Under the pieces are notes generated by a model that ran no database searches, was not told the origin of the DNA, and worked only from the letters and a program-made list of their open reading frames with translations. From positions 80,104,001 to 80,168,000 of the forward strand of contig JAGIQG010000010.1 of the NCBI GenBank assembly GCA_024679065.1: a stretch of DNA of 64,000 bases, given 5' to 3'. This DNA is from Sphyrna mokarran. Taxonomy: Eukaryota. The position numbers and the translations under genes are program-made. Positions 6,776 to 50,015 of the stretch are shown piece after piece. Numbering within the stretch: position 1 is the stretch's first letter; each line of letters begins with the position of its first letter.

Positions 6776-6897
6776 TATAGAGAAGTGTTCTGACCAGAAC
6801 ACTGCATTTGCCTGACGAAGATGAAAAGTCAAAAGCTCACAGATTTACTATCAAATAAATCGGTTGGATTTAAAATTGGTGTTACCAGAGTCTTACT
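6776..6897 (+). mobile_element. About 120-bp Penelope 3'-end insertion (hammerhead plus AATAAA)
   Basis: Reverse complement of 26645-26745; flanked by CAGTCACAGAGG(G)TCATG at 6758-6775 and 6898-6915. Confidence 0.8.
6806..6844 (+). ncRNA. Minimal type-I hammerhead ribozyme motif (G12 mutated)
   Basis: ATTTGC-CTGACGA-A-GAT-GAAAA-GTC-AAAA-GCTC-ACAGAT. Confidence 0.7.
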
Positions 6898-7959
6898 CAG
6901 TCACAGAGGGTCATGGCTGAGGGACTGCAGAGTGTGGCCAAGTCACAGAGGATACTTGCTGCTCCCATTGACAGGTGGCTCCCGACTCAGAGGGTCATTG
7001 CAGAGGGCTTGGCCAACATGGCTAAAATGCAGGTGGTCTTCTAGGACTGGCAGAACCAGGTGAATTGGGGGAAACACTACAATGATTGTGGTTGGGGGTT
7101 GCCTGACCACGTCCCCCTCCCCTACAAGCTATGCTTACCATATCAGCCCCAGTGAGACTCCCGCAACATTGTGTGTGAACCTGTGATAAATTGCACCTTT
7201 TAAAAATATGATGAGAGGTCAAGATAACGGCAAGGTGGGATGTTGAATGATATAAATTGTGTTGTAAACCAGATTCATGTCAGAAATGTGCATAAACCTG
7301 ATGACATTGCCAGCGAATAACGGAGAAGATCCGAAGTCATAGTCCTGCTAGCAATAGCTGCGATTTCCGGTTTTGGGCCTCACTGCAGAAGTACTACCCA
7401 GGGGCCTTCAGGAGCTCAAAGGGAAGAAGATGGACTTGAGTCACTGCTGGGACTCCCATCCATGAGACTCTGGCAATGGATACATCCCCCCTTGCTGACA
7501 CTGGGACATCTCAAGACCAGCAGAATGAAGAGGGTGTCACGCAAACATCCCAGACATCTTGAAGCCAGCCAGGGCCCACAAGGTACAGGCCCTCGAGAGG
7601 ACAATCGCCAAGGGCATCACAGCCCATGGGGTGCAGTACAGACCTTTTCACCTCTGACATATATATATAAGGGATACCAAAATGTATGGGTATGCTATGG
7701 AAAGATAAAAAATTGTAGCAGAGGTAAGGTGGCACAGTAGAAGGGCAACACTAGATAGATAGAATATTTAGGCACTTCATAATCTCATGTTCATGTTTTT
7801 ATATTATCATTTATTTTGAAGGCACTTTTATTGGCACAAATTTCATACCACACCTGTGACTAATTTGTCTCTGATTAGCCTCTAACAGATGTGTACTTAC
7901 CTTTACAGTCATTGGTGGACCCTTCAAGTTGATGTAACTGGGGGAGGTGCCTTAGCACA

Positions 7960-8265
7960 TGGCTCAAATAATTCACTGGCTACATCACCCCATCTCCCCC
8001 ACCACTACTACCATCACCTCACCCAACCTGGGGCCTTGTATGGATGTTTTGTGCTCCCGTAGCCACTATCCAGATGTGGGTCACACACCAATTGCACATT
8101 TATTGAACGAAAGTCCTTCGTGTTCACGAATTTTCGTGGTCCCTTCACCAGGGCCTTGAGGGAGACATGGGTGCAGTGTTTTGCCCTCTGCACATGTGAC
8201 ATCCCCACAATGGTCGTGAATCCTGCAATCCCGGCTTCCTGCCCATGGGGAATAAAAAATAAAAC
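7960..8265 (-). pseudogene. PIF/Harbinger DDE transposase (HARBI1-like) fragment
   Basis: HCTHVSLKA..FVNTKDFRSINVQLVCD matches the HARBI1-family motif IDCTHV..NRKGFHSINVQLVCD; first catalytic Asp is lost. Confidence 0.8.
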
Positions 8266-8309
8266 ACTGGGGGTGATCCTGAGCTCGCATTCGCCATCTA
8301 TTTGAATGC

Positions 8310-10035
8310 TATTGGGGGTTCAAAATCCACAAGTTGCAGCTATTGCTGGCGGGAATACGACTTTGGATCTTCTCCGTTACACAGAAGCAACATCATCAGG
8401 TTTATGCACATAACAGGCATGAACCTGATTTACAAACATTTTATATAATTAAACATCCCATCCTGCTGTTATCTTGACCTCTCATCAAATTTTTAAAAGG
8501 TGCAATTTATCACAGGTTCACACACAGTGAACATGTTGCGGGAGTCTCACTGGGACCGATATGGTAAGCATAGCTCGTAGGGGAAGGGGACATGGCCAGG
8601 CAACCCCCAACCTCAATCATCATTTGCAGGTCTTATGAAGAGACGCTGAGGGATTTGAGGTTGTTTTTGTTAGAAAGGAGGCAGCTGAGAGGGGACCTAA
8701 TCGAAACATATAAGATGATTAGAGGTTTAGATAGGGTGGATAGTGATAGCCTTTTTCCTAGGATGGAAAAAGCTAGCACGAGGGGACACAGCTTTAAATT
8801 AAGGGGTGATAGTTATAGGACGGATATCAGAGGTAGGTTCTTTACCCAAAGGGTGGTTCGGGAGTGGAATGCCCTGCCTGCAGCAGATGTAGATGCGCCA
8901 AGTTTGGTGGCGTTTAAGAGGTTAGTTGATAAGTATATGGAAGAGAAGGGAATGGTTTAGTTTGGAGGGGCATTGCTTTTTATATTGGTCAGCGCAACAT
9001 TGAAGGCTGAAGGGCCTGTTCTGTGCTGTAATGTTCTATGTTCTATGTTCTATGTTCATTAGTGTTTCCCCCAACTGCCTGATAATGCCCCATGACACTG
9101 CATTGTGTCATGATACTGTCAGGTTGGCAACATGCCATTCTGGCAGTGCCACCCTGGAAGTGCCAACCTGGCAGTTGTCAACTTGTGCCAAGGGGTAGGC
9201 TCCAGTGGGAGCTTCATGGGGGCTTCATGCAGATGTGGTTGCGGGCCAGGAGCAGACAGAAGAGCAGAAGATGCCAGCGATGGTCATTTGGTGGAGGTGG
9301 GGGGAGGTGAGAGAGAGAGAATGGTCCAATGATCATGGTGGGCAGGTGGAAGGAGCAGAGGCTGATGATTATTGCAGGAGAAATAGGACCAACGATCACT
9401 GGGGAATGGGGAAGGGGTCAATGATTGCTCTGAGCAAAGAAAATTTCAATGATCACAGGGGGGATGGGAGAGGGGGTCAATGGTGGTCATGGGGAAGATA
9501 AGAGTTGATGATCAATGTGGGGGAAAAGGAGCCAATGGTTGTGGGGGGAGTAGTAGGGGCTGATGATCACGATGAGGGGGAGAAGGGAACGATGATCAAT
9601 GGTGATGGGGGGGGGAGAAGGGCCTAATGATCGGCCCAATGGGAGGGAGAAGGGGCTGATGATCATGATGGGGGAAGAAAGAGCTGATGATCATGGGAAG
9701 TAGAGGTTGGGAGAGATGTGGTGAATGCAGCCAGAATAAATGCTGGCTCTGATCAGGTGTTTGAAGGGGAGTCCCTGAAGCCTTTGTGGTGGGGTTGGGG
9801 GGATTAATACTACTCTGATCGGGCTACTGTTTATTATTGGTACCCCATCTCTAAGCAGCCAGGTTTTGCCTGTATTGAAGCACTGCCCCCATGGCATGAA
9901 TCAGCCTCTCCCTTGATTTTATTTTGGCAGAGTGTTGTAAGATTTAGAGAGAAAACCGACTAGTTTCTCTGAAGAGGAACACACTGATTTTCTCGCCAGA
10001 AAGAACTCTGCCATTTTTAGTAAGATTTTGCCAGG
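8310..10035. mobile_element. Non-autonomous Harbinger-like element with internal G-rich degenerate repeats (9300-9700)
   Basis: GGGGGTTCAAAAT start, GCCATTTTTAGTAAGATTTTGCC end (end shared with the 60300 region); GGCAGTGCCAACC motifs shared with 13580 and 20190. Confidence 0.55.
8629..9056 (+). mobile_element. Young 5'-truncated HER1/CR1 LINE
   Basis: Open ORF2 C-terminus RSYEETLRDLRLFLLERRQLRGDLIETYK..FFTQRVVREWNALP, stop at 8960, (TTCTATG)3 tail. Confidence 0.92.
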
Positions 10036-11243
10036 CATCTTTCCATGCAGTAACCTGTCTTTTGGTTCAGATAGCATTCAGTAGGTGCTCAAGATTCATT
10101 CTCATGATTTGTGTCATCTGAACCTCTTGAAAAGTTAATATATTGCAATACATCCAAAATACATTTTATCTATAGTGCATACTGTTGAGTAAATAATGCA
10201 ATACATTACTGAAATAATAATGCCCTTCCACTTGGCATGCAATGCTTTAATCCTGCTAACAATGCTTTGCATGTACCACATGTCTCAGCCAGTTATGAAG
10301 CTGGGAATAATGCAATACATCTTAAATGAGGGTTTTTTTTCTCTCCCTTGAACATTATAAGCAGTGGGTATTAAAACAATAACAGATATTCACAAGTAAT
10401 TTGAAGATTGTAACTCAATCTTAGGGTTCAGCTTATGTCGGTGAACTACTCAAGCAAAGTTCTCACGGCTTATTGCGTCATCTGAATTCTTTGTTGGATG
10501 ATAGTTTTTAAACCCTTTTCCAACTCTATTATTTGATTTGTAACATGATAGTATCACAATTTGTTTTACATTAAAGCACTTTTCAGAAGCATTCTTAGGA
10601 TTTTCTTATCTTTCACTCCTGAAAGGAACGGTACAATTCTTTGTCTTCATAATTGCCTTTATTGTGCTGTACTAAGATCTCCCCAGGAGACTAGCCACAT
10701 CTGATAGTTCGGCTGCATTTGTTATTTTGATGCTACTTAGAACAGTGATGCAAGTAGTTAAATTAGTTCTATATAAAATTAAATCAAGGAGGTTAAAACC
10801 AACTGCAAACAAAGCCAATTTGCTCATTTTGTGTTAATTGCATAGGACAGCTTTCATGTGATAAATATAAAGCAGTGTTTTACATTTAGTATACTCCAAG
10901 TGGATTCAAATTTTAGAATTAATGCAAAATTGAATTCCAGCATTCATGTGGTGGTTCTTATTGTGACCACTTGTTCTATGTAATGAAGTACAGTAGAAAG
11001 AGTGAACTCAGTTGGACTGCTATTGTATTGCAATGATTGAATTAATGTGCACATACTAGGGTCTGCTGTTCAAATTTGCAACACGTGTCAAGATAGAATG
11101 GGTTGGAGTGATTGAAAGTGAGAAAAAAAGGCAAGAAGGAAGACCATGGCAAAAAGTAATGTAATCATGCAAGAAAGGCAAAAATGGTGAGGCTAATGCC
11201 ACATTCATCAACGTATTGACATGTGATTCGCCCTAACCCCTTC

Positions 11244-11590
11244 ATAAGAATATAAGAAATTGAAGTATCAATAAATTATTCTGTCCATCGAGCCTGCTTC
11301 ACCATTTAATAAGATTGTAACTAATCCTTAATCTCAACAATGCTTGCCAATCCAACCCGTGTGACTCTCTTACAGTTCAAAGTTCTACTGATCAAGCCTT
11401 GAATATACTAAATGAAGAAGAATCCAAAGACCCCTAGGGTAGAGAATTTCAAAGTTTCAGAATTCTCTGGGTATAAATTTTTCTTCATTTAAATCCAAAA
11501 TGGACATCTCTTATCCCAACACTCTCCTTCTCATTCTGGACGCTCCAGCCAGTAGAAACAGCCTTGCAGCACCTACTGTCTCTGCCGTCT
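11244..11590 (-). mobile_element. CR1 3' end fragment
   Basis: CATAAGAATATAAGAAAT tail and GAGCCTGCTTCACCATTTAATAAGAT 3' UTR motif on the reverse strand. Confidence 0.75.
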
Positions 11591-12558
11591 TCGACAGGAT
11601 TAATTAATGACCTCAGCATAAAGGCAACCCACCCCCACCTCCCCGCCTGCTCCCCCCCAACCCCCACCTCCCCAAGTATCAGCAACCACAATATGATTGA
11701 ATTTACATCCAATTTGAAGGGGAGAAGATTTGGTCTAAGAGTAGTAATTTAAATGTAAATAAGGATAACTATGTGGGCATGAAAATTGAGCTAGCTGAAA
11801 TGAACTAGGATACTAGGCTAAGGGACAAATCAGTAAAAATTAGTAGCAGACATTTAAGGGGATATTTCATAATATTCTGAATACATACATTTCTATTATA
11901 AAGAAAAATTCTAAAGAAAGGACCCATCATACATGGCTAACCAAAGAAGCTAAAGAAGGAAAAAGCATATAACTGTGCAAAGGTGAGTGGCAAGTCAGAT
12001 AATTGGTCAGAATATAAAGAACAGTAGAGAATAACTAAAAAGTTAATCAGGAAAAAGAATGGATGGCAAGGTTTTCTGCAGATACTTGAAAAGGAAAAGA
12101 GTAATTAGAGTCAGTGTTGGTTCACAAGAGAATGGAGAATTAATAGTAGATAATAAGGAAATGGGAGATTAAATGAATAAATACATTACTTCAATCTTTA
12201 CTATCAAAGATACAAAGAAATTCCAATAATAGCTATAAGTTGAGAGGTGAAAGGAAGAAAGGAACTGAGTGAAATTCCAATCACTAGAGTAGAGGTACTG
12301 AGCAAACTGAGAAGCTATGGACTGACAAGTCTCGAGTCCAAATGGACTTGATCCTAGTGCTCTAAAAGAAGTAACTAGTGAGATTAGAGTTAATTTCCCA
12401 AAATTCACTAGAATCTGCCAAAGGTTCTATCAGACATGGCAAGTAACAAATATACTCAAGAGGGAGGGAGGCAGAAAACAGGAAATTTGAGGCCAGTTAG
12501 CTTGGTGTCTTTTGTAGGAAGGCGTTAGAATTGATCATGAAGGAGTTCATTGCTGGGC

Positions 12559-12894
12559 TAGAAATCATAGAACCCTATAGTGCAGAAAGAGGCCCTGTGT
12601 GTCTGCACCGAACACAATCCCACCCAGGCCCTACCCCCATATCCCTATACGTTATCCCCACTAATCCCTCTAATCTACGCATCCCTGGACACAAAGAGGC
12701 AATTTCTTTACATAGCCAATCAACCTAACCCACACATTTTTGGACTGTGGGAGGAAACAGGAGTACCCAGAGGAAACCCACACAGACATGAGGAGAATGT
12801 GCAAACTCCACACAGACAGTGACCCGAGCCGGAATCAAACCCATGACCCTGGAGCTGTGAAGCAGTAGTGCTACCACTGTGCTACCATGCCACC
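12559..12894 (-). mobile_element. HE1-type V-SINE
   Basis: tRNA-like A/B-box head, V core, TTCTATGATTTCTA tail. Confidence 0.88.
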
Positions 12895-12895
12895 C

Positions 12896-14249: not shown

Positions 14250-15162
14250 ACGATGTGCAAATGCCGGCATTGGACTCGGATAAGCACAGTAAGAAGTCTC
14301 ACAATACCAGGTTAAAGTCCAACAGGCTTATTTGGTAGCACAGGCTTTTGGAGTGTCACTCCTTCTTCAGGTGAGTGAATAGTTGTGTTCACAGACAGGG
14401 CATATACAGACAATTTACAAGATAATACTTGGAATGCAAGTCTTTACAGGTTGTCGAATCTTAAAGGTACAGATAATGTAAATGGAGAGAGGATTAAGCA
14501 CAGGTTAAAGAGGTGTTAATTGTCTCCAGCCAATTCAGTTAGTGAGATTTTGCAAGCCTGAGCAAGTCATGTGTGTTACAGATAGTGTAGCATGAACGCA
14601 AGATCTCAGCTGAGGCTATCCTCATGCATGCGGAACTTGATTATCTGTGCTTGCTCGGCGATTCTGTATTGTTGTGTGTCGTGAGGGCTGCTTTGGAGAA
14701 TGCTTACCCGAAGATCGGAGGCTGAATGCCCCCATGACTGCTGAAGTGTTTCCTGACAGGAAGAGAACATTGCTATCTGGTGACTGTCGAGCAGTGTTCA
14801 TTCATCCGTTGTCATAGAGTCTGCATGGTCTCACCAATGTATCATGCCTCAGGACATCCTGTCCTACAATGTATCAGATAGACAACATTGGCAGAGTCGC
14901 AAGAGTTATGTACTATGTACCTGGTAGATGGTGTTCTCGCATGAAATGATGGCGTCTGTGTTGATGATCCGGCAAGAGTTGCAGAGGTCGCTGTGGCAGG
15001 GTTGTGTAGCGTTGTGGTCACTGTTCTCCTGAAGGTTGCTGTGGACAATAGTCTGCTTGAGGTTGTGCAGTTGTTTGAAGGCAAGAAGTGGGGGTGTGGG
15101 GTGGCCTTGGCAAGATGTTCAATGACTGTTGAAGGCTCCAGAGAAGATGTCATAGCTTCTCT
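14250..15162 (-). mobile_element. Penelope-like element 3' part (GIY-YIG endonuclease, pLTR with hammerhead at 14340-14373)
   Basis: CDSANVVYLIHCRTGCPEA*YIGETMQTL*QRMNEH; CACCTGAAGAAGGAGTGACACTCCAAAAGCCTGTG. Confidence 0.88.
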
Positions 15163-25822: not shown

Positions 25823-26600
25823 GTTTCTATTAAGGTGACAATTCAATTACTATTACTAAAGTGTTTACGATCACATCAAATGTTAATTTGAAAGAAAGAA
25901 AATCTTGTGTTACAATAATAAGGTTTACAACATTATAGCAGTTTAGGACTTTGGGTGAAATTTTCCATTTAGGACACAAAGCACAGTGGTGTGCAGTTCC
26001 AGCAGTGCCCATGCTCCTGGTTGGAATAGCAGGGATTTGTGCCTGGTTCTGCACTTGGAAGCTTATCATTTATGCAAAGGCGAGTATTGGGCCAAATCAC
26101 CTGGTGGATTAGAAGCTAACTCGTTCACCCATTGTCAACTGGCGGATCGAAGGTCCAGGTGACATATTTATGAACCAGTCCAATATATACATCTCCCTCA
26201 TCAGCCCATCTGTCTCCAAGATACTTTCAGAGGTGTCTTGCAGCCATCAGAAGAAAGGTGAAAGCTTCAAGAAGAAGGCAGCACTACAATTCACCCATCA
26301 GGCCCTCAAAGCTTTGATCAGAGGAATATGGACACACAGACATGTTCTGTATCCCAGGAATGGCTCCAGGAAACACACCAATCAGCGCAGGAAGAAGATG
26401 AATGATACCATCTACTCCATTATCTCTCAACTCCCTCCAATATCAAACTCTCATCATGGCATCATGTATTCAAATCACTATTCTCTTCAGGGATCGAACA
26501 CAAATATTAGTTCAGGATTCATTCTCTCATGAAAAGTTTCACATCAGCACCATCCCATCTATCCTGTTGCTTATATTACGTCTCTTGGCCCTATTAGGGA

Positions 26601-27715
26601 TGATGTAGAGATGCTGGCGTTGGACTGGGGTAAACTCAGTAATAATCTGGCAACACCAATTTTAAATCCAACCGATTTATTTGATAGTAAATCTGCGAAC
26701 TTTCGACTTTTTCGTCTTTGTCAGGCAAATGCAGTGATCTGGTCTGCAATAGCACACATGTCAGCACAGACGGTCACAGATTGCTGATTAGAATGCAAAT
26801 CCTTACACCTAACGTGCTATTCAAGTGTTAAAGTGACTAACGATGTGTGTGAAGGGAACCCTGAGCATTGGTTAGAGAAATGTGCATTTTCTTCAGACAG
26901 CACAGTAAGTGAGGTTTTTTGCTAACCCAGGCAAGTCACAGGGGTTACAGATAGTGTGACATGAAGCCAAGATCCCTGTTAAGGCCGTCCTCATGTGTGC
27001 GGAACTTGGCTATCAGTCTCTGCTTAGCGACTCTGCGCTGTCGTGTGTCATGAAGGCCCTCTTGAAGAACATTTACCTGAAAGTCGGAGGCCGAATGTCC
27101 GTGACTGCTGAAGTGTTCGCCCACAGGAAGGGAACTGTTTTGCCTGGTGATTGTTGAGCGATGTTCATTCATCCGCTGTTGTAGTGTCTATATGGTCTCC
27201 CCAATGTACCATGCTTCGGGACATACTTTCTTGTGATGAATTAGGTAGACAACATTGGCCGAGTTGCAAGAGTATGTACCGTATACCTGGTGAATGGTAT
27301 TCTCACGTTTGATGGTGTCGTCCATGTCTGTGATCCGGCAGGTCTTGCAGAGGTTGCTGTGGCAGGGTTGTGTGGTATTGTGGTCACTGTTCTCCTGAAG
27401 GTTGGGTAGTTTGCTGCGAACAATGATCTGTTTGAGGTTGTGCGGTTGTCTGAAAGCAGTAAGTGGGGGGGATGGCCCTAGCGAGATGTTCATCGTCATC
27501 AATGATATGTTGAAGACTCCGGAGAAGATGTCGTAGCTTCTCCGCTCCGGGAAAGTACAGGACAACAAAGGGTACTCTGTCTACCATGTCCCGTGTTCGT
27601 CTTCTGAGGAGGTCAGTGCGGTTTATCGCTGTGGCATGTCGGAACTGTCGATCGATGAGTCGAGCGCCATATCCTGTTCTCACGAGGGCATCTTTCAGCG
27701 ACTGGAGGTGTCTGT
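26601..27715 (-). mobile_element. Penelope-like element (RT thumb/linker, GIY-YIG, pLTR) with 12-bp TSD
   Basis: CNSANVVYLIHHKKVCPEAWYIGET..MNEHR..PVGEHF; TSD CCCTATTAGGGA (26589-26600) / CCCTTTTAGGGA (27716-27727). Confidence 0.9.
26691..26730 (-). ncRNA. Minimal hammerhead ribozyme motif (G8 mutated)
   Basis: ATTTGC-CTGACAA-A-GAC-GAAAAA-GTC-GAAA-GTTC-GCAGAT; stems I and II pair. Confidence 0.72.
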
Positions 27716-28210
27716 CCCTTTTAGGGAGACTTCAACACTAACAAGTGTATCTCACCCAACCTTTGCTCCAATCTCTCTTATCACAAGCCTTTATTTTGTC
27801 TTCATTCAGGCCACGCTCACACACAACTAGAGTGAAAGATCACAGACTTGGAAAGGAACAGCTAATAGCATTGATCTCACTGAATTTGTGAAGGTGCAGA
27901 CAATAGCTGGGGAGGACAAGAAATGCTTAAGTGGGGAAAGGGAGATTGGCCTCTCCCAGTAACCAAGTATGAAATACAGCTCCATTGCTTCAGCAAATCA
28001 TGATAACCACTGTGAGTCACATATGCCTATGTATGCTCCTCAACTGGAACTCTATTCTCTGTTTTTTAAGCAATTTGAGGCCCACAAGGCAACTCAGCCC
28101 CAGTTTGATCCTCCAGAACACCCTGAGGGGGAGGCTCAGGAAGACCCATTACACCCCCACCCTTCTCCACCTTAGTGCAGCATATCTCTAGATTAGGCTT
28201 GGACTCACTT

Positions 28211-29205: not shown

Positions 29206-29541
29206 CTTGCAAACTGGAGAATAACTCACTGATGTGTCCACACAGCAGTCAGACACAAGAGCAGCCCAGGTTTCTAGCACTCAAAAGGCTGCTGGAAATC
29301 AGCCACTCATTCTGTCTGAATCAGATGAGCCTCTGGAACCAGTTGCCAACTCAATACGGGAGATGCAATGCGCACTTCATAACCACACATCCTAGTGGGC
29401 ACAATCAGGATACAGGCGACATGGGTATGAGGCATCTTGATCTCCCTCTAGATGCATCATCTCGAGTTGGAGTCAGACAAGGTCCTGGGGCTCCTAAAAG
29501 AAGGATGAACGTCAGCTGGATACCCATCTCGGCACTAATAT

Positions 29542-30522
29542 GATGTGGAGATGCTGTGTTAGACTGCGGTAAGCACAGTGAAGGAAGTCTCACAACACCA
29601 GGTTAAAGTCCAACAGGTTTATTTAGTGGTACAGCTTTCGGAGTGTTGCTCCTTCTTCAGGTGAGTGAGGAGTTGTGTTCGCAAACAGGGTATATATGTA
29701 ACAGCGAACTCAATTTACAAGATAATTGTTGTAATGCGAGTCTTTACATGTATTTGAGTCTTAAAGGTACAGACAATGTGAATGGAGAGAGCGTTAAGCA
29801 CAGGTTTAAAGAGGGGTGTATTGTCTCCAGCCAGGACAGTGAGTGAGATTTTGCAAGCCTAGGCAAGTCGTGGGGAATACAGATAGTGTGACATGAAACC
29901 ACGATCCTGGTTGAGGCCATCTTCAAGTGCGTAAATCTTGTAAATCTTTTCTGTACTGGACAACGAAGGGTACTCTGTCCCTTGTTTCTCTTCTGAGGAG
30001 GTTGGTGTGTTTTGGCTGTGGTGCATCAGAACTGTTAATCGGATAAGTGTCTCCAAGGTGGCCTTCATGACATACGACAGTGCAGAATTGCTGAGCAGAA
30101 ATCGAGAGCGAAGTTCCACATGCATGAGGACGGTCTCAACCAGGATCTTGGGTTCATGTCATATTATCTATAATCCCCATAACTTGCCTGGGTTTGCAAA
30201 ATCTCACTAACTGTCCTGGTTGGACATAATACACATCTCTTTAACCTATGCTTAACCCTCTCTCCACGCATATTGTCTGTACCTTTAAGATTTGATTATT
30301 TATAAAGACTTGCATTCCAACCATTACCTTGTAAATTGAATTTGTGTCCATGTATGCCCTGTTTGTGAACATTACTCCTCACTCACCTGAAGAAGGAGTG
30401 ATATTTCAAAAGCTTGTCCAGGCACCCACCATCCTCTATGTAAAAAACTTGCCTCGCACATCTCCTTTAAACCTTGCCAATAAACCTGTTGGACTTCAAC
30501 CTGGTGTTTGTGAGACTTCGTA
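29542..30522. mobile_element. Penelope-like element ends in inverted arrangement
   Basis: 29585-29930 is the reverse complement of about 30110-30520; both arms carry a hammerhead motif. Confidence 0.88.
29629..29663 (-). ncRNA. Hammerhead ribozyme motif with intact CUGANGA/GAAA core
   Basis: CAC-CTGAAGA-A-GGAG-CAACA-CTCC-GAAA-GCT-GT; the cleavage-site H17 appears deleted. Confidence 0.72.
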
Positions 30523-30524
30523 CA

Positions 30525-32694: not shown

Positions 32695-33180
32695 AGAACA
32701 AGGAAAATTATAGCACAGAAATAGGTCCTTTGGCCTTCCAAGCCTGCACTGGCCACATTGCCTGGCTGAACTAAAACTCCCTATCCTTCTAGCGACCTTA
32801 TCCCTCTATTCATGTATTTATCCTGACACTTCTTAAAAATCACTATCATATCCATTTCCATTGCCTCTCCCAGCGGCAAGTTCCAGGCACCCACCATCCT
32901 CTATGTAAAAAAAAAACTTGCCTCGCACATCTCCTTTAAACCTTGCCCCTCACACTTTAAATCTATTCCCCCTAGTAATTGACTCTTCCACCCTGGGAAA
33001 AAGCTTCTGACTATCCACTCTGTCCATGCTCCTCATAATCTTGTAGAGTTCTTCAGCTCGCCCCTTAACCTCCATCGTTCTAGTGAGTTTCTCCAGCTCT
33101 CCTCATAACTAATGTCTCCCAGCCAGGCATATTCTGGGAAATCTTTTCTGTACCGTCTCCAAAGCCCCAACATCATTCAG
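32695..33180 (-). mobile_element. CR1 3' fragment
   Basis: AAAGAACAAGGAAAATT tail; reverse-strand YKIMRSMDRVDSQKLFPRVEESITRG. Confidence 0.85.
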
Positions 33181-33262: not shown

Positions 33263-36200
33263 ATATAAGAACATAAGAAATAGGAGCAGGAGTATGCCAT
33301 CTAGCCCTTTGGACCTGCCCTGCCATTCAATAAGATCATGGCTGATCTGAAGTGGATCAGTTCTACCACCTGCTCCCCATAACTCTTAATTCCCTTATTG
33401 ATCAGGAATCTTTCTCCCCTTGACTTAAGCATATTGCAGACAACAAATATTTGTATATGGCCTTTAATGTAATAAACCATCCCAAGGCACTTCTCGGGTT
33501 CATAATAAAACAAAATAATGACAACAAGCCAAGAAAGAAGATATGCCAGATGACCAAATATTTGGTCAAAGACAGCAGAGGGAAGCAATATAGAGAGGCG
33601 GAAAGGTGAACAAAGAATATTCCAGAATTTAGGGCCGAGACAAATGTGAAAGCATAGCACCAAAGGTGGAGCCTCCACCACTTCAATGGGCAGGGAATTC
33701 CAGAGATTTACCACCCTCTAAGAGAAGAAGTTCCTCCTCAACTCTGTTCTAAACTACCCTCCCTCCTCCCCTTATTTTGAGGCTATGCCCTCTAATTCTG
33801 GTTTCCTTTCTAAGTGGAAAGAATCTCTCTACCTCTACCCTATCTAGCCACTTCATTATCTTGTAAGTCTCTATAAGATCCCTCCTCAGCCTTCTAAACT
33901 CCAACGAGTACAGGCACAATCTACTCAATCTCTCCTCATAAACTAACTCCCTCATCTCCGGCATCAGCTTGGTGAATCTTCTCTATCCTCCCTCCAAGGC
34001 CAATATATCCTTTCACAAATAAAGGGACCAAAATTGCACACAGTACTCCAGTTGCGGCCTCGCCAGTGCCTTGTATAGTTGCAGCAAGACCGTCCTACTT
34101 TTATATTCTACCCCTCTCGCGATAAAAGCCAACATTCCATTTCCCTTCTTGATCGCCTGCAGACTGAGTTTTTGTGGTTCATGCCCAAGGACCCCTAGGT
34201 CCTTCTGCACAGTAGCATGCTGCAACTTTTCACCATTTAAATAATATTCCATCCTATCATTATTTCTTCCAAAGTGGATAACCTCACATTTGCCAACATT
34301 ATACTCCATGTGCCATGTCCTCGCCCACTCAGTCAGCCTATCCAAATCTCTCTGCAGACTTTCCGCGTCCTCCATGCAATTCACTTTTCCACTCATCTTC
34401 ATGTCATCAGCAAATTTCGTTACCCTACACTCAGCCCCCTCCTCTAGATCGTCTATGTATATGGCAATCCCCGCGGCATGCCACTAATCACCAACTGCCA
34501 ACCAAAAAAGCACCCATTTATTTCAACTCTCTGCTTCCTGTTAGATAGCCAGTCCTCAATCCATGCTAACACTTTACTCCCAACTCTGTGTGCCTAACCT
34601 TCTGCAACCTTTTGTGAGGCACCTTATCAAACGCCTTCAGGAAATCCACCAGTTCCCCTCCGTCTACCACACCAGTCACATCTTCATAAAAATTCAGTAA
34701 ATTTGTCAAATATGACCTCCCCTTCATGAATCCATACTGTTTTTTTCTGGGTATCCTGTTATTTCTTCTTTAATGATGGATTCTAGCATTTTTCCAACCA
34801 CGGACATTAAGCTAACCAGCCTATAGTTACCTGCTTTTTGTCTGCTACCTTTTTTAAGCAGCGGTGCAACAGTAACTGTTTTCCAATCTGCTGGCACTTC
34901 CCCGGAGTCCAGCGAATTTTGATAAATAACTACTAGCGCATCTGTATTACTCCTGCCATTTTTTTCAGTGTCCTGGAATGCATTCCATTTGGTTCCGGGA
35001 ACTTGTCTACCTTCAGTCCAGTTAGTCTACCAAGCACTGCCTCTTTAGAAACAATAATTGTATTAAGGACCTTATCTCCTACTAACCCTCTATCTTTAAT
35101 ATTCGGTAAGGTATTTGTGTCCTCTACCGTGAAGACCAACACAAAAAACTTATTTAAAGCCTCAGCCATTTCCTCATTTCCCACCACTAAATCCCCCCCT
35201 CTTGTCCTCCAAGGGTCCAACATTCACTCTAGCCACTCTCTTCTTCTTTACATATTTGTAAAAAGTTTTACTATCATTTTTTATATTTAGAGCTAGTTTA
35301 GTTTTATACTCTATCTTTCCTTTTTTTAATTGCTTTTTAGTCATTCTTTGTTGCTTTTTAAATCTTTCCCAATCTTCTAATTCCCCACTATTTTTAGCCA
35401 TTCTGTAGCACCGGTTTTTAATTTAATACTCTCCTTTATTTCCTTTGATATCCATAGCTGGTTATCCCTTTTCTTACAGTTCTTCTTTATCCCCGGAATA
35501 TATTTTTGCTGAGTACAAAAAAGATCTCCTTAAAAATCCTCCACAGTTCATCAGCTGTCCTACCAACCAACCAGTCTACATTAGCCAATTCCACCCTCAT
35601 CTTATCATACTCATCTTTGTTCAAGCAGAGGACACTGCTTTGGGACCCTACTTTCTCACCCTCCATCTACATCAGAAATTCAACCATATTGTGATCACTC
35701 ATCCCAAGAGGATCCTTCACAAGGAGGTCCCTAATTCTTCCTGCCTCGTTACAGTGTACCAGATCTAAGATAACTCGCACTCTTATAGGTTTGATAACAT
35801 ACTGTCAAAGGAAACTATCCCAACAGCATTCTAAGAACTCTTCCTCAAGTACACCGCATCCGACTTGAATCAACCAATCAATATGCAGGTTAAAATCCCC
35901 CATGATTATTGCTGTTCCATTTTTGCATGCGGTCAATTATTTACTTGTTTATAGCCTGCCCCACCTCAAAGTTATTATTTGGGGGCCTATAGACCACCCA
36001 AGTGACTTTCTCCCCTTACTATTCCTTATCTCCACCTACAACAATTCCACATTTTGCTCTTTGGATCCTATATCGTCTCTCACTACCACCCTGATATTAT
36101 CCTTTATTAACAGAGCTACCTCACCTCCTTTTCCTTCCTGTCTATCTTTCCTAAATGTCTGATACCCCTGGATATTCAGTTCTCAGTCTCGGTCACCCTG

Positions 36201-37912: not shown

Positions 37913-37914
37913 CA

Positions 37915-38200: not shown

Positions 38201-39277
38201 TGGATCATTTCAAAACGCTATAGAGGGACAGGCAAGAGTTGATTTCAAAACAGAAGAGATTCCCAGCTGTTGGCAGTTTTTGACCCTGACTTTCTAGCAT
38301 GACTGCATGGACCATACACCAGATTTTGTTCTGCATATGATTCTCAAGAGATTGGTGCACTATTTTTAAAAGGTGCCTCTATTTAAACAAAATAAAATAA
38401 GGGAGTACTCCCGTTATGCACATATCTAACTCCCAATCTGCCAGGGAATTCACCCCCATAGTACAACGCTAGGGTATTGTCTGGCCATGCCCCTCTCTCC
38501 CTGGGGGCTGCATTTATCCATGCACCCCTGATAAGTTCTCTTTGCCAGGTCCTCATTTGTCGAAAGCTGTTGTAAATCCTGATGAAGTGACAGGGGAAAT
38601 CCAAACATGGCGGATAATAAGAAAGACCCCTTGGTGATTTTAAAATATATGGTAATAGGGCTCCTACCTCTTGTGGTGGGAACCCCACTGCGTCAGTGGT
38701 AAGGACAATCGGAACGGAAAATCCCGATGGCATAAAAGCCATTTGGTGATTCTTGGTGATTCTCCAAACCCGCCACCTTTCCCACCTGCTGAAAACAAGG
38801 GTAGAACGTCCTGGCCATTGAATCGGATAGTCAATGCCTTGCTCAAATCAAGCAACCTACGCAACAAGTTGCAACTCTACAAGTGCTGTAAGAAGTAGTG
38901 ACAAAAGGATGGCCTGAGAGCATTAAGGATATACCTGTGTTCACTAAAGTCTATATGGGTATACTGTGATGAATTGATAATACTTTTTACAAAGGTAGTA
39001 GGAATATCATCCCGAAGGTGCTGAATGGAGAGATAATGAAGTGTATCCATGCAAGTCATCAAGGAATTGAATCAACTCTGAGAAAGACAAGAGAAGTGCT
39101 CTACAAATGTGCACTGAAATTAAAGACCACATAGTCCAGTGCATGCAATGAGTACCAAACTAAGCAAATTGTGGAGCCATTGATGACACAGACAGAATCT
39201 GGGAGTAGACTTTTTCACTTTGGCAGGAACTGATTATCTTGTCACTGTTGACTATTTCTCTGGGTGCTGGGAGTTAA

Positions 39278-40989
39278 CACAGTAAAAAGTCTCATAACAC
39301 CAGGTTGAAGTCCAAATAGTTTATTTGATAGTAATTACACAAGCTTTCAGAAATGGTGTTCCTTTGTCAGGTGTATGGAAGGTTCTGATCAGAGAAAGTC
39401 ACACACAGTTTACAGAATACTGATTAGAATGCAAGTCTTTACAGCTAAACTACTATTCAATTCTTAAAGATGCAGACAATGTGAGTGGAGATAGCATTAG
39501 CATAGTCTAAAGAGATGTGTATTGTCTCCAGACAGGACAGTAAGTGAGATTTTACAAGACATGAACCCAAGATGACGTAGATACATCTATGACATTTTCT
39601 TCCTTTGGACTCATGGTGAAAAATCACTGAAACAACTATATGATGACATCAACAAATTCCACCCCACCATCAGACTCACCCATGGACTATTCTCCGGAAT
39701 CGGTGACGCACGTATCTCCATCAAGGATGGTCACCTCAGCACCTCACTTACCACAAACCCACAGATAACCTCATGATGCTCCACTTCTCCAGCTTCCACC
39801 CTAAATATGTGAAAGAAGCCATCCTCTATGGACAAACACAGGATCTGCTCAGATGAGGAGGATCATGACAGACACCTCCAGATGCTGAAAGATGCCCTCA
39901 TAAGAACAGGACATGGCGCTCAACTCATCAATCGACAGTTCCAACGCACCACAGTGAAAAACTACACTGACAGCTTCAGAAGACAAACACGGGACACGGT
40001 GGACAGAGTATCCTTCGTTGTCCACTACTTCCTCGGAGCGGATAAGTTACTACATCTTCTCTGGAATCTTCAACACATCACTGATGAAGATGAACATCTT
40101 GCCAGGGTCATCCCCACACCCCCACTTCTTGCCTTCAAACTGCATAACCTCAAACAGACCGTTGTTCACAGCAAACTACCCAACCTTCAGGAGAACAGTG
40201 ACCACAACACCACACAACCCTGCTACAGCAACCTCAGCAAGACATGCTGAATCAGCGACACAGATGACATCATCTCATGTGAGAACACCGTCCACCAGGT
40301 CCACGATACATACTGTTGCAACTCGCCAACATGGCCTATCTAATACGCTGCAGGAAAAGATTTCCTGAAGCATGTTACATTGGGGAGACCATGCAAACAC
40401 TATGACAACAGATGAATGAACATCACTCAACAATTACCAGACAAGACTGTTCCCTTCCTCTTGGTGAACACTTCAGCAGTCATGGGCATTCGGTCTCTGA
40501 TCTTCGGGTAAGCGTTCTTCAAAACGATCTTCATGACACACGACAGTGCAGAATCACTGAGTAGAGACTGATAGCCAAGTTCCGCACACATGTGGATGGT
40601 CTCAATCGGGAACTTGGGTTCATGTCGCACTATCTGTAACCCCCATGACTTGTCTGTGCTTGTAAAATCTCATTTACTGTCCTTTCTGGAGACAATACAC
40701 ATCCGTTTAACCTATGCTAATGCTATCTCCACTGACATTGTCTGCATCTTTAAGACTTGAATAACAGGTGAGCTGTAAAGACTTGCATTCTAATCAGTAT
40801 TCTGTAAACTGTGTGAGACTTTATATACCCTTCTCTGATCAGAACTTTTCACACACCTGACAAAAGAACACCATTTCCAAAAGCTTGTGGGATTACTATC
40901 AAATAAATTGATTGGACTTTAACTTGGTGTTCTGAGACTTCTTACTGTGTTTACTGCAGTCCAACGCCAGTATCTCCACATCATGACTA
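39278..40989 (+). mobile_element. Penelope-like element with inverted upstream pLTR, inserted in the Gypsy integrase
   Basis: RYIYDIFFLWTHG (degenerate RYxDD), STSLYHKPTD, YIGET..MNEH; 39278-39570 is inverted versus 40620-40950; TSD-like CTGGGAGTTAA / CTGAGAGTTAA. Confidence 0.9.
39338..39373 (-). ncRNA. Minimal hammerhead motif (partner copy at 40854-40889 +)
   Basis: CAC-CTGACAA-A-GGAA-CACCAT-TTCT-GAAA-GCTT-GTG. Confidence 0.65.
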
Positions 40990-41897: not shown

Positions 41898-42116
41898 CCA
41901 TGATGTGAAGATGCCGGCGTTGGAATACATACAGTAAACACAGTAAGAAGTCTCACAACACCAAGTTAAAATCCAACAGGTTTATTTGGTAGCACAAGCC
42001 ACTTGTGTTTTCTCTTGTTTTAATTGATAAAACTTTTTGATAATTTCCTTATTATTTAGTTGTGCTACCAAATAAACCTCTTGGACTTTTACCTGGTGTT
42101 GTGAGACTTCTTATTG
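41898..42116. mobile_element. 219-bp palindromic Penelope-end mini-element
   Basis: Inverted arms 41944-41997 / 42060-42114; perfect 10-bp TSD AACTCACTAT (41888-41897, 42117-42126). Confidence 0.85.
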
Positions 42117-42162
42117 AACTCACTATAACACAGGATCATGTCTGCAGATGTGTTTTTTTCAT

Positions 42163-42847: not shown

Positions 42848-43110
42848 AGAACATGGAAAAACTACAACACAAACAGGCCCTTCAGCCCACAAGTTGCCAA
42901 ACATATCCCTACCTACTAGGCTTATCTATAACCCTCTATCTTACTCAGTCCCAAGTACTTATCCTCATAAGTACTTGGGACTGAGTAAGATAGAGGGTCT
43001 TAAAAAACCCTATCGAATCTGCCTCCAATACCACTGCCGGCAGCCAATTCCACACACCCACCACCCTCTGAGGAAAATCTTACCCCTGACATCCTCTGTA
43101 CCTACTCCCC
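42848..43110 (-). mobile_element. CR1 3' end
   Basis: AAACAGGCCCTTCAGCCCAC; TTCCACACACCCACCACCCTCTG. Confidence 0.8.
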
Positions 43111-43479
43111 AGTTTGAAAGTGCTGCGTTCCAATTGCAAACAAAAAAATCTTAAACATTAATTATCCCAATCTGAAAGTTTTTATTTCATTTTGCATACA
43201 TCTTGGCAGTTTTTAATAAGCACAATTAGCCTATTATTGTCGATTTTCATTGTATGGGTAGGCTCCCAATTTCCAGGCTTGCCAGTTAACTGTAGTATCA
43301 GTATCCCAGACTGGCGTGATTACCCTGGGAACACAATCCAATATCTTGGCGCTCAGTAATACATTGCGCATTTTGCCCCTGTTTTCAGAGCGTGTTACTC
43401 AAGCCATAGAATGCCATAGATAGCAGTGGCGTAAAACACAGGGAAGTTTGAAGTTATTCATTTTGATCATAACAATTAA

Positions 43480-44172: not shown

Positions 44173-45699
44173 TCATTCCTATTCCAAGATTGGAAAAGCT
44201 TTGACAGTGTAAATTATTTCTTTCTGATGGGTACATTTCCCATTACTTCATAGGTTTTATTATCGTTCTTTATGCATTCTCAAAATAATGACCCTTTTTC
44301 TTGATTCAACCTACACATTTTTTTCAAAGCTCTGTTTAATCACAGGGACTGATAAGGCTGAAGTCTCCAGTTTGCTCTCTACAAATTCCATACATACTTT
44401 GAAAGACAACTGCATTATCTCATCAACAGAAGAATATAGGATACTATGAGAGAATGTTGTGGAGTGGAAGGAGGACTCCTGCTCCCCCTGACTCTAAGGA
44501 GTGATTAACTTTACCTTTTGTTGGCCGTGATCACTTAGGCTCAAGAATCTGCTCTGCTCATCCTAAAGCAATTTCTGCCAGTGGGCCTAAAACAGGCATT
44601 AGGTCAGTTATTGACATATGTAAAGGGCCTAATACTTGTTTCTGTCAGCTATATTACCTTTCAATACATCCCAACATCTGATTTGCTTTACTCACAGCTG
44701 CCCAGGATAATTGTAATTCCTTCTTTTTTTAATCAACCAAGATCCCCCAGACATTATTCATTCTCCATGCATATTATCTTCTTTATATTTAAGTAATAGT
44801 CCCTTTCTGGAATTTTTGAAACAGTTTGCATTTCTCCAAATTGAATTTAATTTGCCATCTGTCTCTGCTTAAACCCCATTTAATGTTTCTTGTTCTAATA
44901 AATATTGTTTCAATTTATCTTTATTAAAATCTATTTGCTATTCCTCAGATCATTTATTTATACCTGCGGAACACATCTAGTGATTGCCTCAAGATACTAT
45001 TTTTTATATTTATCATACCTTCTGCTGCCTGTTGCCAAGCCAAATAGATAATTTGCCAAGCTTTTACATCTATGAAACACAGAGGCATCTACACATAAGT
45101 CATTGTGCAGCATGCTCATCCTCAGACTACCAGATAACATTGAAGTATCACAGAAGAAACATTATTTACAGCTACTACACCATCTGTTCACCAATCATTG
45201 ACCAAATTCAGGTGCAACTGACTTGAGAGTAGGAGGAGGTTTTTGGCATCATATGCGTAGATAATGCTAAAACTGACTGTATTCTCATGCACCGCCACAT
45301 ATTTGAAATGGCAATGCTGCATCAGAATGGAGCCCTGTGGAACAACTGAGACCTCAGGAATACTAGGTATTGCAGTAAAGTGGGGTGAGCCCACTGGAGA
45401 AGATTGTACAAAGATTGGCCACTACTAGCATTGAAGAGCCCTCTGATATATAAAAACCAATGGAGATGAACTGAAACTGAGGTGAAGTCAGTCAGCAAGA
45501 TGGAGGGTTAGGGCTTTTTCAGTTATGGGATGTGGACAAAATCAGCTGGGCCAGCATTTAGTGCTCATCCCTAATTGTTTTTGAACTTAGTGACTTGCTC
45601 AGCCATTTTAGAGGGCATTTATGAGTCAAACTCGTTGAATGTAATTGTACTAAAATTAGCCAGTGTCAGTTTCAGACTGAAAACTGGTGTGTATCTTTC

Positions 45700-46082
45700 C
45701 AGATACATAGCTGAGTTTTCACTCCGGATTCTCTGGCACTCAAAACAGAATATCTGGGGACAAGGTTTGCATCTTCATTCTGTTGGGGCAGGGGCTGACA
45801 GAACCAGTAAGACCGATTCCACAGACATTGGGGCATCTGCATAAAACACAAACTCACAGCATCTGAAAACCAGTAATGATTTGTACCAGCATGACGTTAC
45901 ACTGATTGAGTGGGAAAATAAATTGAAGGTGGAAGTAGTGATGTCAAATCCGCCGGTTATACACAGCTGCATGCAAATCAGGATCGCACCAATCCTGGGT
46001 GTATTCAGTTGGAGAAACAAGGAAAATCCCAAACCAGAATTTTGCCAGCGTAAATCCTGTTTTTGGTCTAGCAGGATTGGTA
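45700..46082. mobile_element. Harbinger-type MITE
   Basis: GCTGAGTTTTCAC start, ATGCAAATCAGG and TGACGT motifs as in other MITEs here, CAGGATTGG end. Confidence 0.4.
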
Positions 46083-46489
46083 GGGGAGTTAGTTATGAAG
46101 GTCTACCTTCTCAACATTGCTGCTCACATGAACGATCCTCAGGTTAAATTTATCACCAATCAGCTCTCCCCTTAAAGGGACGGGCAGCCTATTGTCATCT
46201 GGGACAAAGGCTCTTCACGTTTCCCATCTGTAAAGTGGAAAACAAGGATATGGTGAATCCTATCACCATCTATAAGGGAAGGGAAGAGAACTGAAGTGCA
46301 GGAAATGTTGTGAACATGGTTGAGGGCCCTGTTAATCACAAATAGGAGGAATACTTGATTGAGGGAAAATAAAGACATATCGGCTAGAATTCTTCCATCC
46401 TACTGCTACTGGAATTTTAGTGGGCAGGTCAGGAAAGCATTTCCGGCTTATCGACCAGCATGGCTGGAGAATTCCACCCTTCACCTTCT

Positions 46490-47255
46490 CCTCTCCTTCT
46501 TTCCCTTTTTAGCATTCCAAAGGAAGCATTCATCTGTGTTACCTTGGTCCACATTTCCATTAACTAAGACACCTCATCCACTACCAACAACACCCTGACA
46601 TGCAATCTCAGGAATTGCAATTCCAGTCCTTTCATCTCCTTCCTTCTCAGTGCTCAAGATTGCAAACATTTCCAGGTAAAGCAGTGACTTAGGTTACTTT
46701 CAATTTACTATACTGTATTCACCATTCACAATACAGTGTCCTCAACATTAGCTGACGACTAAATGGAACAACTCCACAATTCTGCAAGTATGATCTCAAA
46801 TTTCTAGTTATTTGCTATTTTAATTCATCAACTTGCTCTTACTCAGCCTGCTGCAGTATTCCAGTGAAGTACAATCCAGGCTCAAGAGGCGGCACCTCAT
46901 CTTTCAAGAAGGCATTTTAGAGCCTTCACTGAGTTCAACAATTTCTGACACGAATTCTGTCCCCTATTTTGATTCTGTTTTTATCCTCCATCTGCCAGTA
47001 TGAATTTTGTTTTCTGTAATTTTGCTTTTGGAAGGACTGTTCATTATTCTGCCATTGACATTCATGTTGGACAAATGCTTTGCTTCTCTATTTCTTCTCT
47101 TTTGTTTCTGCCACCCACACCCCTCCCCACGGCTTCCAATGGCATAAAACTGATTATATTTCTACTTTCTTTCAATTCATATTTGTCTTGAAATGTTAAC
47201 TCTATTTCTCACTCCATAGATACTGCCGGACTTGCTGAGCATTTCCTGTTTTGAC
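46490..47255 (+). mobile_element. Second Penelope-like family, decayed GIY-YIG and terminal repeat
   Basis: CNLRNCNSSPFISFL..FQVKQ..FNLLYCI..CYFNS; ends GAAATGTTAACTCTATTTCTC..GCTGAGCATTTCC like the palindromic elements. Confidence 0.7.
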
Positions 47256-49794
47256 CCCAGCTCCATAATGTATCTGGTCAATAGCCATCAACAACAATCA
47301 CCCATTTGGACAATAGTGCATGTGGCGACTCTTGCAAAGACCTATCCAATTACTCACATTTCTCTGATCTTTCTCTACAATCTAGCAAATATTTCCAATT
47401 CCGTTTTGAAAATTATTATTGAATCTGCTAACACCACCCTTTCCAGCAATGCATTCCAAATAAAAACAACTCTGTAAAATTAGTTTTCTATATTTTCTTT
47501 CACTTCTGATTATTTTGCCATTACCTTATCTCTGCGTCCGCTGGTCACCAATCTCTCTGCTTTTGTAACAGTCCTTCTTTATTTACTCTTTTGTGAACTG
47601 CAAAGACGTTTTCACTTTTGACTTGCTATTTGTTTTTCCAAAATATCCTCAAAGTAGAGGGAGCTTAGTCTGCATTTATCCACTCCCGCTTTAGCCACAA
47701 CTTTTAAGATTGTAATTATCCTAAACAACCTGATTCTTAAAGAGAAAGACCATACTGTGAGACACTTAAAAAAACAAAAAGTCCTTTTGAAGGCTATTAC
47801 ATATTTCAATAATCATTAACGTTTCAGTATTTACTTTGATAAAGGATGACATTCAGCAGCGAACTTAAGTATTTATTCTACAGTAACAATGCTAGCTAAA
47901 ATAAGAGTACAGTCTTAGCATGCAAAGATAGATCTGAGGGGCTGGATTTTGTTTTGGGGATGAGACTCCAACATCAAGTGAAGTTTCAGGTCCTGGCCCC
48001 ACATCATGTCAGCATCAGACTCCCAACTTGATTTTTGTGGGGTGGCCATTTAGTGGCCAGATTCTCATCTAATTAAGGCTGGGGGAATCAACAGGAGGTA
48101 TCCATCAATAATACATCAACAACCCCATGATCCCAGGTTGGATAGTTGCCAATACATGTAAAAGAGTGAAAGAGAGTAGTGGTGTCACGCTTTAAGGGGA
48201 TGCTCCCTAAAGGCCGTGAGATCAGGCTGGACTCTTTGGAGTTTCAAAATGAGAAGCTGAGCCAATAGTGTGCAAGGGCACTTATCCCAGGTAAGAGAGA
48301 ATCCTCAGCTGGACCCAGGGAGGAATGTTGTACCGTTGTATACTTTATTCCATCTGATGCTTTTATTTTAAATATTTTTTATTGGCAATAAAGCCTTTGT
48401 TACTAATAGCCACATTGAGTTGCCCTTGAGCTATTACAGTGCCTCATGATGGAGGCACTCTCTGATGATAAATTAAAATGTTTTAACTAGAATTTTCCAC
48501 TAGATGGCAAGTCGCTGCAGCTGTAGCTTGACACCCATGACAGGTATGGGAGGAGCAGGGGGTGGGGGTGAGGCATAGTCCCTGAGAAGAATGGGGTGCT
48601 ACTGGGATGACGCTTCCATTCTCTGACCGTACTTCAGTGTGGGGCCATAAGGAGAATGGAAAATTCTGGTTCGCTCCTTCTCTGTGACCTTAGTGGGCTT
48701 AATTGACCTAATACACACTCGCTGCTCATTGCATCCAGAGCCCTGCCCAGAATGAAAATGACCTAGTGGCAGGAACATGTTGCTCTCCCACACCAATTTT
48801 TGAACCTTCCCACTTCAAACAGGAGTCCAAAATTTGGCCCAAGGTCAGCCTAATAAATTATTCTGAGAAGATAAATAAATGGCTAATCATAAAATTAACT
48901 GAATCAGAAAAGATCTTTGTTCTGCTTTTATTTGTATTGAGATTATGAGCCAATGCAACATGCACGGACACTGTCTCCTGTTCTTCACCATGTACATAAG
49001 ATCTACTTAAAAGGACACAACTTATCCTTAGGCAAGTTTATAGCCACTTTACTGAATTTTGAACTTCTAAGATATTTTGGAGTGGAGGTAGGAATTTAAT
49101 TCCTCTTATCTTTGGCTGTTTTCCCTCTGCTTTATTCATTTCAGGAGTTCTGCAATCTTTCTCAATGATACAAACAATGATTCAAAGGATTTTATATGAC
49201 TATTTATCTCCTCATGAGTTCAACATTTTGGAATATCTCAGTTTATATGACGATTAAAGTAGGGTTTCTTAATAATGGAAGGGTAAAAAAATTTTAAAAA
49301 TTACAATTTATACATTTGCAAACAGAGTGCTTACATTTATACATTTGCAAACAGAGTGCTTTTATTTATATAAGTTGCCTGAGGTGCCTTTTTCTGGTAG
49401 TAATTTCAAATTACAATTTCTGGAGTTCATAGAAGTTTGCTGCTGCCATTTTCACTTGGTGCTTAATTGAGATTGACAAGGCTGAAAACATAAACAGGGA
49501 GGAGAATGGATAGAGCCTGTTGTACCCGTGCTGGTCTCCATTGTAAAAGTGGGCCTCCATATATAACAAAGTATTGAAATTTACCACATTTGTTTCATGT
49601 ATTAACCATTGCAACTTTTAAAGTTCTAGTCAAGGAGAATAGAGTCACAAACTACAATTATTTTCATCAGCACCAACAATTAATAGGCACTCAAATTGAC
49701 TATTGAGGCAAGATAGTGTGCTTAGTTTTACGAGGGACATTGGAGCACCAACATCAGGTTGAAAGCAGGTTCAACCCTACATTTGACAGCATGG

Positions 49795-50015
49795 CACAAA
49801 AACAGAAAATGCTGGAAAATCTCAGTAGGTCTGACGATATCTCTGGGGAGAAAATAGAGCCAATGTTTTGAGTTTAGATGACCCTTCATCAGAGGTGGAT
49901 GAAGGGCCATGTAAACTCAATATTAGCTCTATTCTCTCCCCACACATGCTGTCAGACTTCTTGAGATTTTCTGTTTTTGTTTCAGATTCCAGCATCTGCA
50001 ATATTTTGTTTTTAT
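49795..50015. mobile_element. Palindromic Penelope-derived mini-element with hammerhead (49862-49892 -)
   Basis: Inverted arms centred near 49895; reverse strand CTGATGA-A-GGGT-CATCTAA-ACTC-AAAAC. Confidence 0.85.

Follow-up and report, generated by a model that had tools for sequence, protein, structure and literature searches.

Decayed minimal type-I hammerhead motifs in two repeat families of a Sphyrna mokarran genomic window, one a predicted Neptune-type Penelope-like element

We analysed a 64,000-nucleotide stretch of the Sphyrna mokarran genome (hereafter the window; contig JAGIQG010000010.1 of assembly GCA_024679065.1, positions 80,104,001 to 80,168,000), in which an earlier note had named eight copies of a minimal hammerhead ribozyme at the ends of Penelope elements and treated them as one family. 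Using a direct motif scan and hand-anchored parsing, we find that all eight are minimal type-I hammerheads (CUGANGA, an extra A, stem II, GAAA and a 4-nt palindrome) lying where the note had placed them. Seven belong to a repeat family that we call A, with three subfamilies (A1, A2 and A3), while the eighth, at 49892, belongs to a second family, B. Copies are named below by the window position of C3: 6812(+), 14370(-), 26724(-), 29660(-), 30387(+), 39370(-), 40857(+) and 49892(-).

6806-6844, plus strand: family A hammerhead of subfamily A3; G12>A, core-adjacent stem I pair broken; within a solo terminal fragment (6788-6901)
14339-14373, minus strand: A1 hammerhead, C3 at 14370; G12>A at 14349, U16.1>C at 14343
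26691-26730, minus strand: A3 hammerhead with the best-preserved stems (stem I of 6 bp, stem II of 3 bp); G8>A, C16.2>U
29629-29663, minus strand: A1 hammerhead with exact core boxes; position 17 is G, stem I absent
30384-30417, plus strand: A1 hammerhead; G12>A; an insertion cuts the motif off after two stem I bases
39336-39375, minus strand: A2 hammerhead; G8>A, C11.1>U
40854-40889, plus strand: A2 hammerhead, C3 at 40857; G8>A, G10.1>A, G12>A
49862-49892, minus strand: family B hammerhead core; G12>A, G16.2>A; stem I of just 2 bp

The description of these cores as exact or single-mutant in most copies holds: over the ten box letters CUGA.GA and GAAA, one copy of the eight is exact (29660), six carry one change and one carries two (40857). 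The extra A after A9 is present in every copy and the G10.1-C11.1 pair is exact in six. None of the eight keeps all 12 core positions once U16.1 and position 17 are counted; copy 29660, exact in its boxes, lacks H17 and the stem I 3' strand, and copy 14370 carries U16.1>C besides its G12>A. The palindromes proposed as a reduced stem III are real and formally 4 nt long, whereas the longer forms AAGCTT and AACGTT had been drawn to include the core positions A14 and H17. The AGCU palindrome is exact in five of the seven family A copies, and ACGU is found in the plus-strand arm at 1700, which belongs to family B.

We compared the number of such motifs with that expected in simulated sequence. A full descriptor, composed after the copies had been seen (G>A allowed at G8 and G12, stem II of at least 3 bp, a palindrome and at least 2 of 3 stem I pairs), matches 5 sites in the window, where 60 order-4 Markov simulations average 0.12 (maximum 1), and misses three of the eight named copies; a looser scan gives 5 sites against 0-3 in 6 simulations. 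The Rfam search proposed in the earlier note turned out negative, the scan of the window at E<=5 returning 10 matches and none to a hammerhead model. The minimum-energy structure is the stem I plus stem II fold in only two of six folded copies (26724 and 39370), with a best z-score of -2.0, and self-cofolding of three natural copies did not give the active-dimer fold as the minimum-energy structure, a result of limited meaning where cores are non-canonical. A purely accidental likeness to the hammerhead core would suit so short a motif, the missing Rfam match and the weak folding z-scores, but it is scarcely credible in view of the descriptor count, the fixed position of the motif in the element, its agreement with the published consensus and the intact boxes in a consensus drawn from four public sequencing runs (below).

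Blastn and profiles built from the window divide the sites into two families with no link between them, contrary to the single family first supposed. Family A comprises nine arms in the window, seven of them with the motif, and covers about 5.1 kb in the following insertions and the solo fragment already listed; no full-length copy lies in the window.

14250-15161, minus strand: 5'-truncated, predicted Neptune-type element with endonuclease remnant, pseudo-long terminal repeat (pLTR) and tail
26600-27737, minus strand: 5'-truncated, predicted Neptune-type element with the frame 27469-26948 inside
29540-30523, inverted pair: A1 ends facing outward; tail on the left arm and none on the right, which a piece of another repeat interrupts at about 30417-30478
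39272-40984, inverted pair: A2 ends; the right arm (39561-40984) carries the C-terminal part of the reverse transcriptase (RT), the endonuclease, pLTR and tail, and the left arm is tailless
41900-42125, inverted pair: family A ends without a ribozyme core, absent from the earlier note; the left arm begins at 42002-42003, equivalent to position 1.1 or 17, and its partner at 42057-42060; tail on the left only

The interrupting piece at 30417-30478 is 62 bp long, 94% like 32882-32947, and splits the 30387 ribozyme two bases past the predicted cut site.

The Penelope-like origin assigned to these sites is borne out for family A by the motif's homologous pLTR position, about 220 nt after the open reading frame (ORF), and by protein matches. 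In the 26724 copy the motif lies 221 nt downstream of the stop of a broken ORF, whose frame (27469-26948, with one internal stop) holds a Cys linker and a GIY-YIG-type endonuclease. Of 118 candidate proteins, 24 match this frame; the top eight are shark proteins at 62-82% identity, in agreement with the shark lineage that had been proposed. The longest relative, P0004, has an RVT_1 domain (E 5e-9), a DKG motif and a CX4CxxC linker that the 26724 copy shares, and window positions 39555-40636 align with its residues 274-643. Atlas clusters nearest to P0004 carry RT, HTH_animal and GIY-YIG domains, with GIY-YIG in 52-77% of members. A Pfam scan of four broken frames gave a weak GIY-YIG match in one (E 0.0035, below the cut-off) and no match in the other three, and a PDB search with P0004 returned nothing under E 0.49. 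By the features described in Craig et al. 2021 (PMC8557442) we class family A as a probable Neptune-type element, although it may belong to Nematis.

A tail is found on one arm only in all three family A inverted pairs. The commonest element ends in the four public runs, among the ends listed, are 14252 and 14284-14288, about 34 bp apart. This span corresponds to the Penelope tail, attributed by Frangieh et al. 2024 (PMC11167929) to a pair of RT start sites.

Pieces of the family A ORF also occur in annotated shark proteins (P0001, P0007, P0014, P0017, P0019, P0023 and P0024: pyrin-domain, NOXP20-like, septin 5a, XRCC5, PPP1R12A-like, USP8 and HMG-CoA lyase isoforms), reflecting either exonisation or gene-model artefacts. 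Further relatives, P0010-P0012, lie on short JGI/ENA contigs at 55-58% identity and share the linker and endonuclease.

Family B is represented by seven profile hits at four loci, one of them a very decayed arm, and occupies about 0.6 kb of the window.

49791-50007, fold-back: axis at about 49893-49895; decayed hammerhead on either strand; tail-like extension on the right arm only
2500-2710, fold-back: axis near 2625-2628; both cores destroyed
1641-1768, fold-back: strongly decayed; CG palindrome kept in the plus-strand arm
47187-47253, plus strand: fragment, the sole family B arm with G12 (GAAA); absent from the earlier note

Among six family B arms the GAAA box reads AAAA in four, has a deletion in one and keeps G12 in one. 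The sites near 1700 and 2601-2663, reported as more decayed, are indeed so. In contrast to family A, a Penelope origin of family B is suggested only by its architecture, namely the inverted arms and the one-sided extension at 49791-50007. We considered whether family B might instead stand by itself as a palindromic non-autonomous element that is copied whole, and not be the truncated end of a Penelope element. It has neither an ORF in the window nor a blastn link to family A, its axis falls within a few bases of C3 in two of three fold-backs, and as whole units the fold-backs form long hairpins (-92.8 and -86.5 kcal/mol). The one-sided extension, the different axis at 1700 and the solo 47187 fragment fit separate truncations, as in family A, and we regard the self-standing origin as improbable. 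By the predicted folds, any transcript spanning a fold-back would close into a long hairpin (-85 to -93 kcal/mol) and hide the motif.

The changes in the family A cores are concentrated at CpG. Across the seven copies, core guanines that follow C have changed to A in 7 of 11 cells, as against 2 of 73 other core cells (Fisher p 2e-6); the two A2 arms are one insertion sharing G8>A, so that the safer count is 6 of 10 and the p value is optimistic. The CpG observed/expected ratio of the window is 0.25. In total 9 of 84 core cells are changed, in line with the 8-19% difference between the flanks of sister copies. Their sequences make it almost certain that these window copies are inactive fossils. 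The earlier statement that several distinct self-cleaving variants coexist can thus apply only to the source elements, where cleavage would still be a matter of inference. Co-option of some copies by the host as working ribozymes is very improbable: none of the eight named copies is intact, core change keeps pace with flank change, and the window offers no evidence in its favour.

G12 stands in a CpG in most motifs of this kind, because the published consensus has C before GAAA. In a methylated genome this would constitute a built-in route of inactivation; a literature search on hammerhead ribozymes and CpG deamination in retrotransposons, which was not thorough, revealed nothing relevant. G8 is lost in both arms of the A2 insertion, 39370(-) and 40857(+), and if this loss is fixed in A2, the subfamily moved with an inactive ribozyme.

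To characterize the source elements we used four public runs aligned to 14250-14620, with 31,000-60,000 contigs placed per run. Among the rows listed, the loose-end consensus of all four runs has a paired stem II, GAAA, GCU, A/U at position 17 and GUG. U16.1 accounts for 97-99% of depth in the four runs and G12 for 38-50%, the depth-weighted values being biased towards the reference, which has A. Each core base of family A is present in at least one window copy, although G8 occurs in no A2 copy. These data indicate that source elements, at least of A1, carried an intact core. The ribozyme is covered at far lower depth than 14289-14340, but depth summed over contigs does not measure copy number, and at the ribozyme the common variant departs from the reference; we did not take this contrast as proof of truncation. 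The eight loose ends listed on the element's 5' side (14340, 14342, 14353) run on into ribozyme sequence and do not represent truncation at the cut site. Seven of the 15 joints listed (of 74) switch strand, four of these with one side at 14359-14375, each in 1-2 contigs per run, a number too small to be used. Searches with a 20-nt anchor taken from downstream of the ribozyme found two matches in metagenome contigs, which we reject as chance since they do not match the family A or B profiles, and none in viral contigs. No RNA run with the sequence is listed among 24 runs.

The earlier note had further claimed that stems I and II covary between subfamilies. The flanks of A1, A2 and A3 are 64-80% identical, while the boxes, the extra A, G10.1-C11.1 and the palindrome are common to all three. 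In stem I, CAC/GUG in A1 and A2 is replaced by UGC/GCA in A3, which amounts to two double changes (pairs 2.2-1.2 and 2.3-1.3). Stem II was compared by anchoring on the boxes, since the alignment lost its register, and here GGAG/CUCC changes to GGAA/UUCC and to GAC/GUC, with three double changes. All five double changes are paired, and the stem I covariation score of a seven-copy alignment was reached by none of 500 shuffles. Two of the stem II pairs originally listed need amending: GGAA/TTCC is a composite of two inexact copies (GGAA/TTCT and AGAA/TTCC), and GAGTC/GACTC is confined to the 2626(+) arm, which has a destroyed core. The covariation is consistent with selection on structure but falls short of statistical proof, because there are three subfamilies and mostly transition changes.

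Taken together, our results suggest that the motifs are, in all probability, dead-on-arrival or since-decayed copies of minimal type-I hammerheads that resided in the pLTR of source Penelope-like elements. In an active tandem element, two motifs in one transcript would pair via the 4-nt palindrome (A15.1-G/C-C/G-U16.1) and so supply the missing stem III; published work suggests that the element's own protein probably aids this pairing, and that the cut after position 17 would trim or free the element RNA. Selection on the source elements may have kept core and pairing while stem sequences drifted to give the observed pattern of A1, A2, A3 and family B. Reverse transcription begins downstream of the motif, and even short insertions that have lost their 5' part therefore retain it, in many cases as inverted pairs tailed on one arm. 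Copies would be unconstrained after insertion, and methyl-CpG deamination may then strip the catalytic guanines first, since G12 follows C11.1 and G8 follows C7 in two subfamilies; the loss at these guanines is what we observe.

Several points weigh against this reading. Besides the empty Rfam scan and the missing ORF of family B, no tandem direct pair occurs in the window, where same-strand copies are kilobases apart and neighbouring copies inverted. A pair-count measure of covariation was reached by 23 of 500 shuffles, and a control with one strand slid by -2 scores 0.357 against 0.302 for the true register. The independent events are few (three subfamilies plus B), and double transitions, which drift produces most easily, make up four of the five double changes. 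The G8>A shared by the A2 arms may already have been present in a source element that was mobile despite a dead ribozyme. Finally, Frangieh et al. (PMC11167929) report for the Poseidon element of the anole that insertion in vitro is independent of cleavage and unaffected by catalytic mutants, and that no RNA reads end at the cut site.

The anole results also favour the idea that the hammerhead shape is kept for a non-cutting job (protein binding, RNA dimerisation or a landmark for RT) or as a passenger, cleavage being incidental. To the same effect, Naiad elements are very successful without canonical motifs (PMC8557442), the inserted copies have uncut sequence on both sides of the site, G8 is absent from both A2 arms, and min-HHR (minimal hammerhead ribozyme) activity in vitro is low, the Schistosoma motif showing no cleavage alone and weak cleavage as a dimer or trimer (PMC4209133). 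On the other hand, the catalytic positions, a non-G at position 17 and the palindrome are kept across subfamilies with altered stems, as selection for chemistry predicts, and the anole motif does cleave, though only with protein (PMC11167929). We consider a non-cutting or passenger role rather unlikely.

We also asked whether the ribozyme has left a fossil record of acting during transposition in shark genomes, a proposal that we put forward as speculative and rather improbable. Measured against the common variant of the runs, the 41900-42125 pair has a left arm that matches as far as 42002-42003, 0-1 nt from the scissile bond, and a right arm that begins no more than about 5 nt from it. Arms would start there because RT ran off the 5' end of a cleaved RNA. 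Such starts are seen in two of nine family A arms, both from one insertion, and the other seven begin upstream of the core. In family B the fold-back occurs at the 5' strand of stem I, which is palindromic, and this places a hammerhead on either strand; three changes separate the 2500-2710 axis from a perfect palindrome able to form a 6-bp stem I on both strands, and the 49893 axis fits worse. A literature search on 5' ends at the cut site of hammerheads in Penelope-like elements (PLEs) found no paper apparently on point, judging by titles and abstract openings. Should 5' ends accumulate at the cut site among the tens of thousands of copies, this would amount to in vivo evidence for cutting of the template by PLE hammerheads, which goes beyond published work. 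Because copies are so numerous in sharks, counting 5' ends could test whether transposition uses the cut.

Other repeats were noted in the window. A perfect 32-bp inverted repeat with a 4-nt loop lies at 42931-42998, apparently within the tail of a repeat of the long interspersed nuclear element (LINE) type; Rfam microRNA matches at 2568-2687 and 42915-43012 score below the gathering threshold and were rejected as hairpin look-alikes. Inverted arms of about 300 bp (7082-7374 and 8323-8620; 85% alike, about 950 bp apart, with no other window copy) are possibly a non-autonomous DNA transposon or another inverted retro-insertion. The direct repeat 36284-36382/37035-37133 (94% identical, 751 bp apart) is probably a recent local duplication. 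Decayed reverse-transcriptase frames at 33670-34944, 51993-52667, 53730-54801 and 57249-58583 resemble what we take to be CR1/L2-type LINEs.

As the earlier note conceded, the class itself is not new: minimal PLE hammerheads were published by Cervera and De la Pena 2014 (PMC4209133) for fish, coelacanth, frog and reptiles. Nor is the coexistence of variants, because several covarying families per genome are reported there for other vertebrates (6 in coelacanth, 8 in Xenopus). Our findings extend the known class to one more vertebrate lineage. They also indicate that Rfam misses such motifs and that single genomic copies are unsuited to assays, CpG decay removing G8 or G12 first. The terms 'shark', 'Callorhinchus', 'Leucoraja' and 'Squalus' have no match in one of the two supplement files of PMC4209133, and a literature search combining hammerhead ribozyme, Penelope and shark returned nothing on ribozymes ('hammerhead' being used for shape).

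The motifs described here resemble the published min-HHRs (PMC4209133) in their type-I topology without a real helix III, the extra nucleotide between 9 and 10.1, the G10.1-C11.1 pair, the palindromic 15.2-16.2, the short helix I and, apparently, the presence of several covarying families per genome, and likewise occur mostly as solo truncated copies, with opposite-strand pairs 100-700 bp apart. Stem II is 3-5 bp here, unlike the 7-8 bp of the Schistosoma motif, and examples of 3-5 bp are found in the PMC4209133 alignment. Family A shares with the Neptune clade (PMC8557442) the C-terminal GIY-YIG-type endonuclease, the CX2-5CxxC linker and, in the full-length relative, the DKG motif, as well as 5' truncation, inverted ends and a one-sided tail of 30-40 bp. 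The PAc Poseidon element of the green anole (PMC11167929) similarly has a tail that lies downstream of its hammerhead with an RT start site at either end, but it belongs to the Penelope/Poseidon clade without a Cys linker and its ORF starts inside the hammerhead. A preprint (Li et al. 2026, 10.64898/2026.07.22.740005), the supplements of which may already list families A and B, describes non-LTR (non-long terminal repeat) retrozymes in the one chondrichthyan sampled. These have type-I hammerheads that, like ours, derive from pLTRs, yet they form head-to-tail tandem repeats, whereas the copies in the window are solo or inverted.

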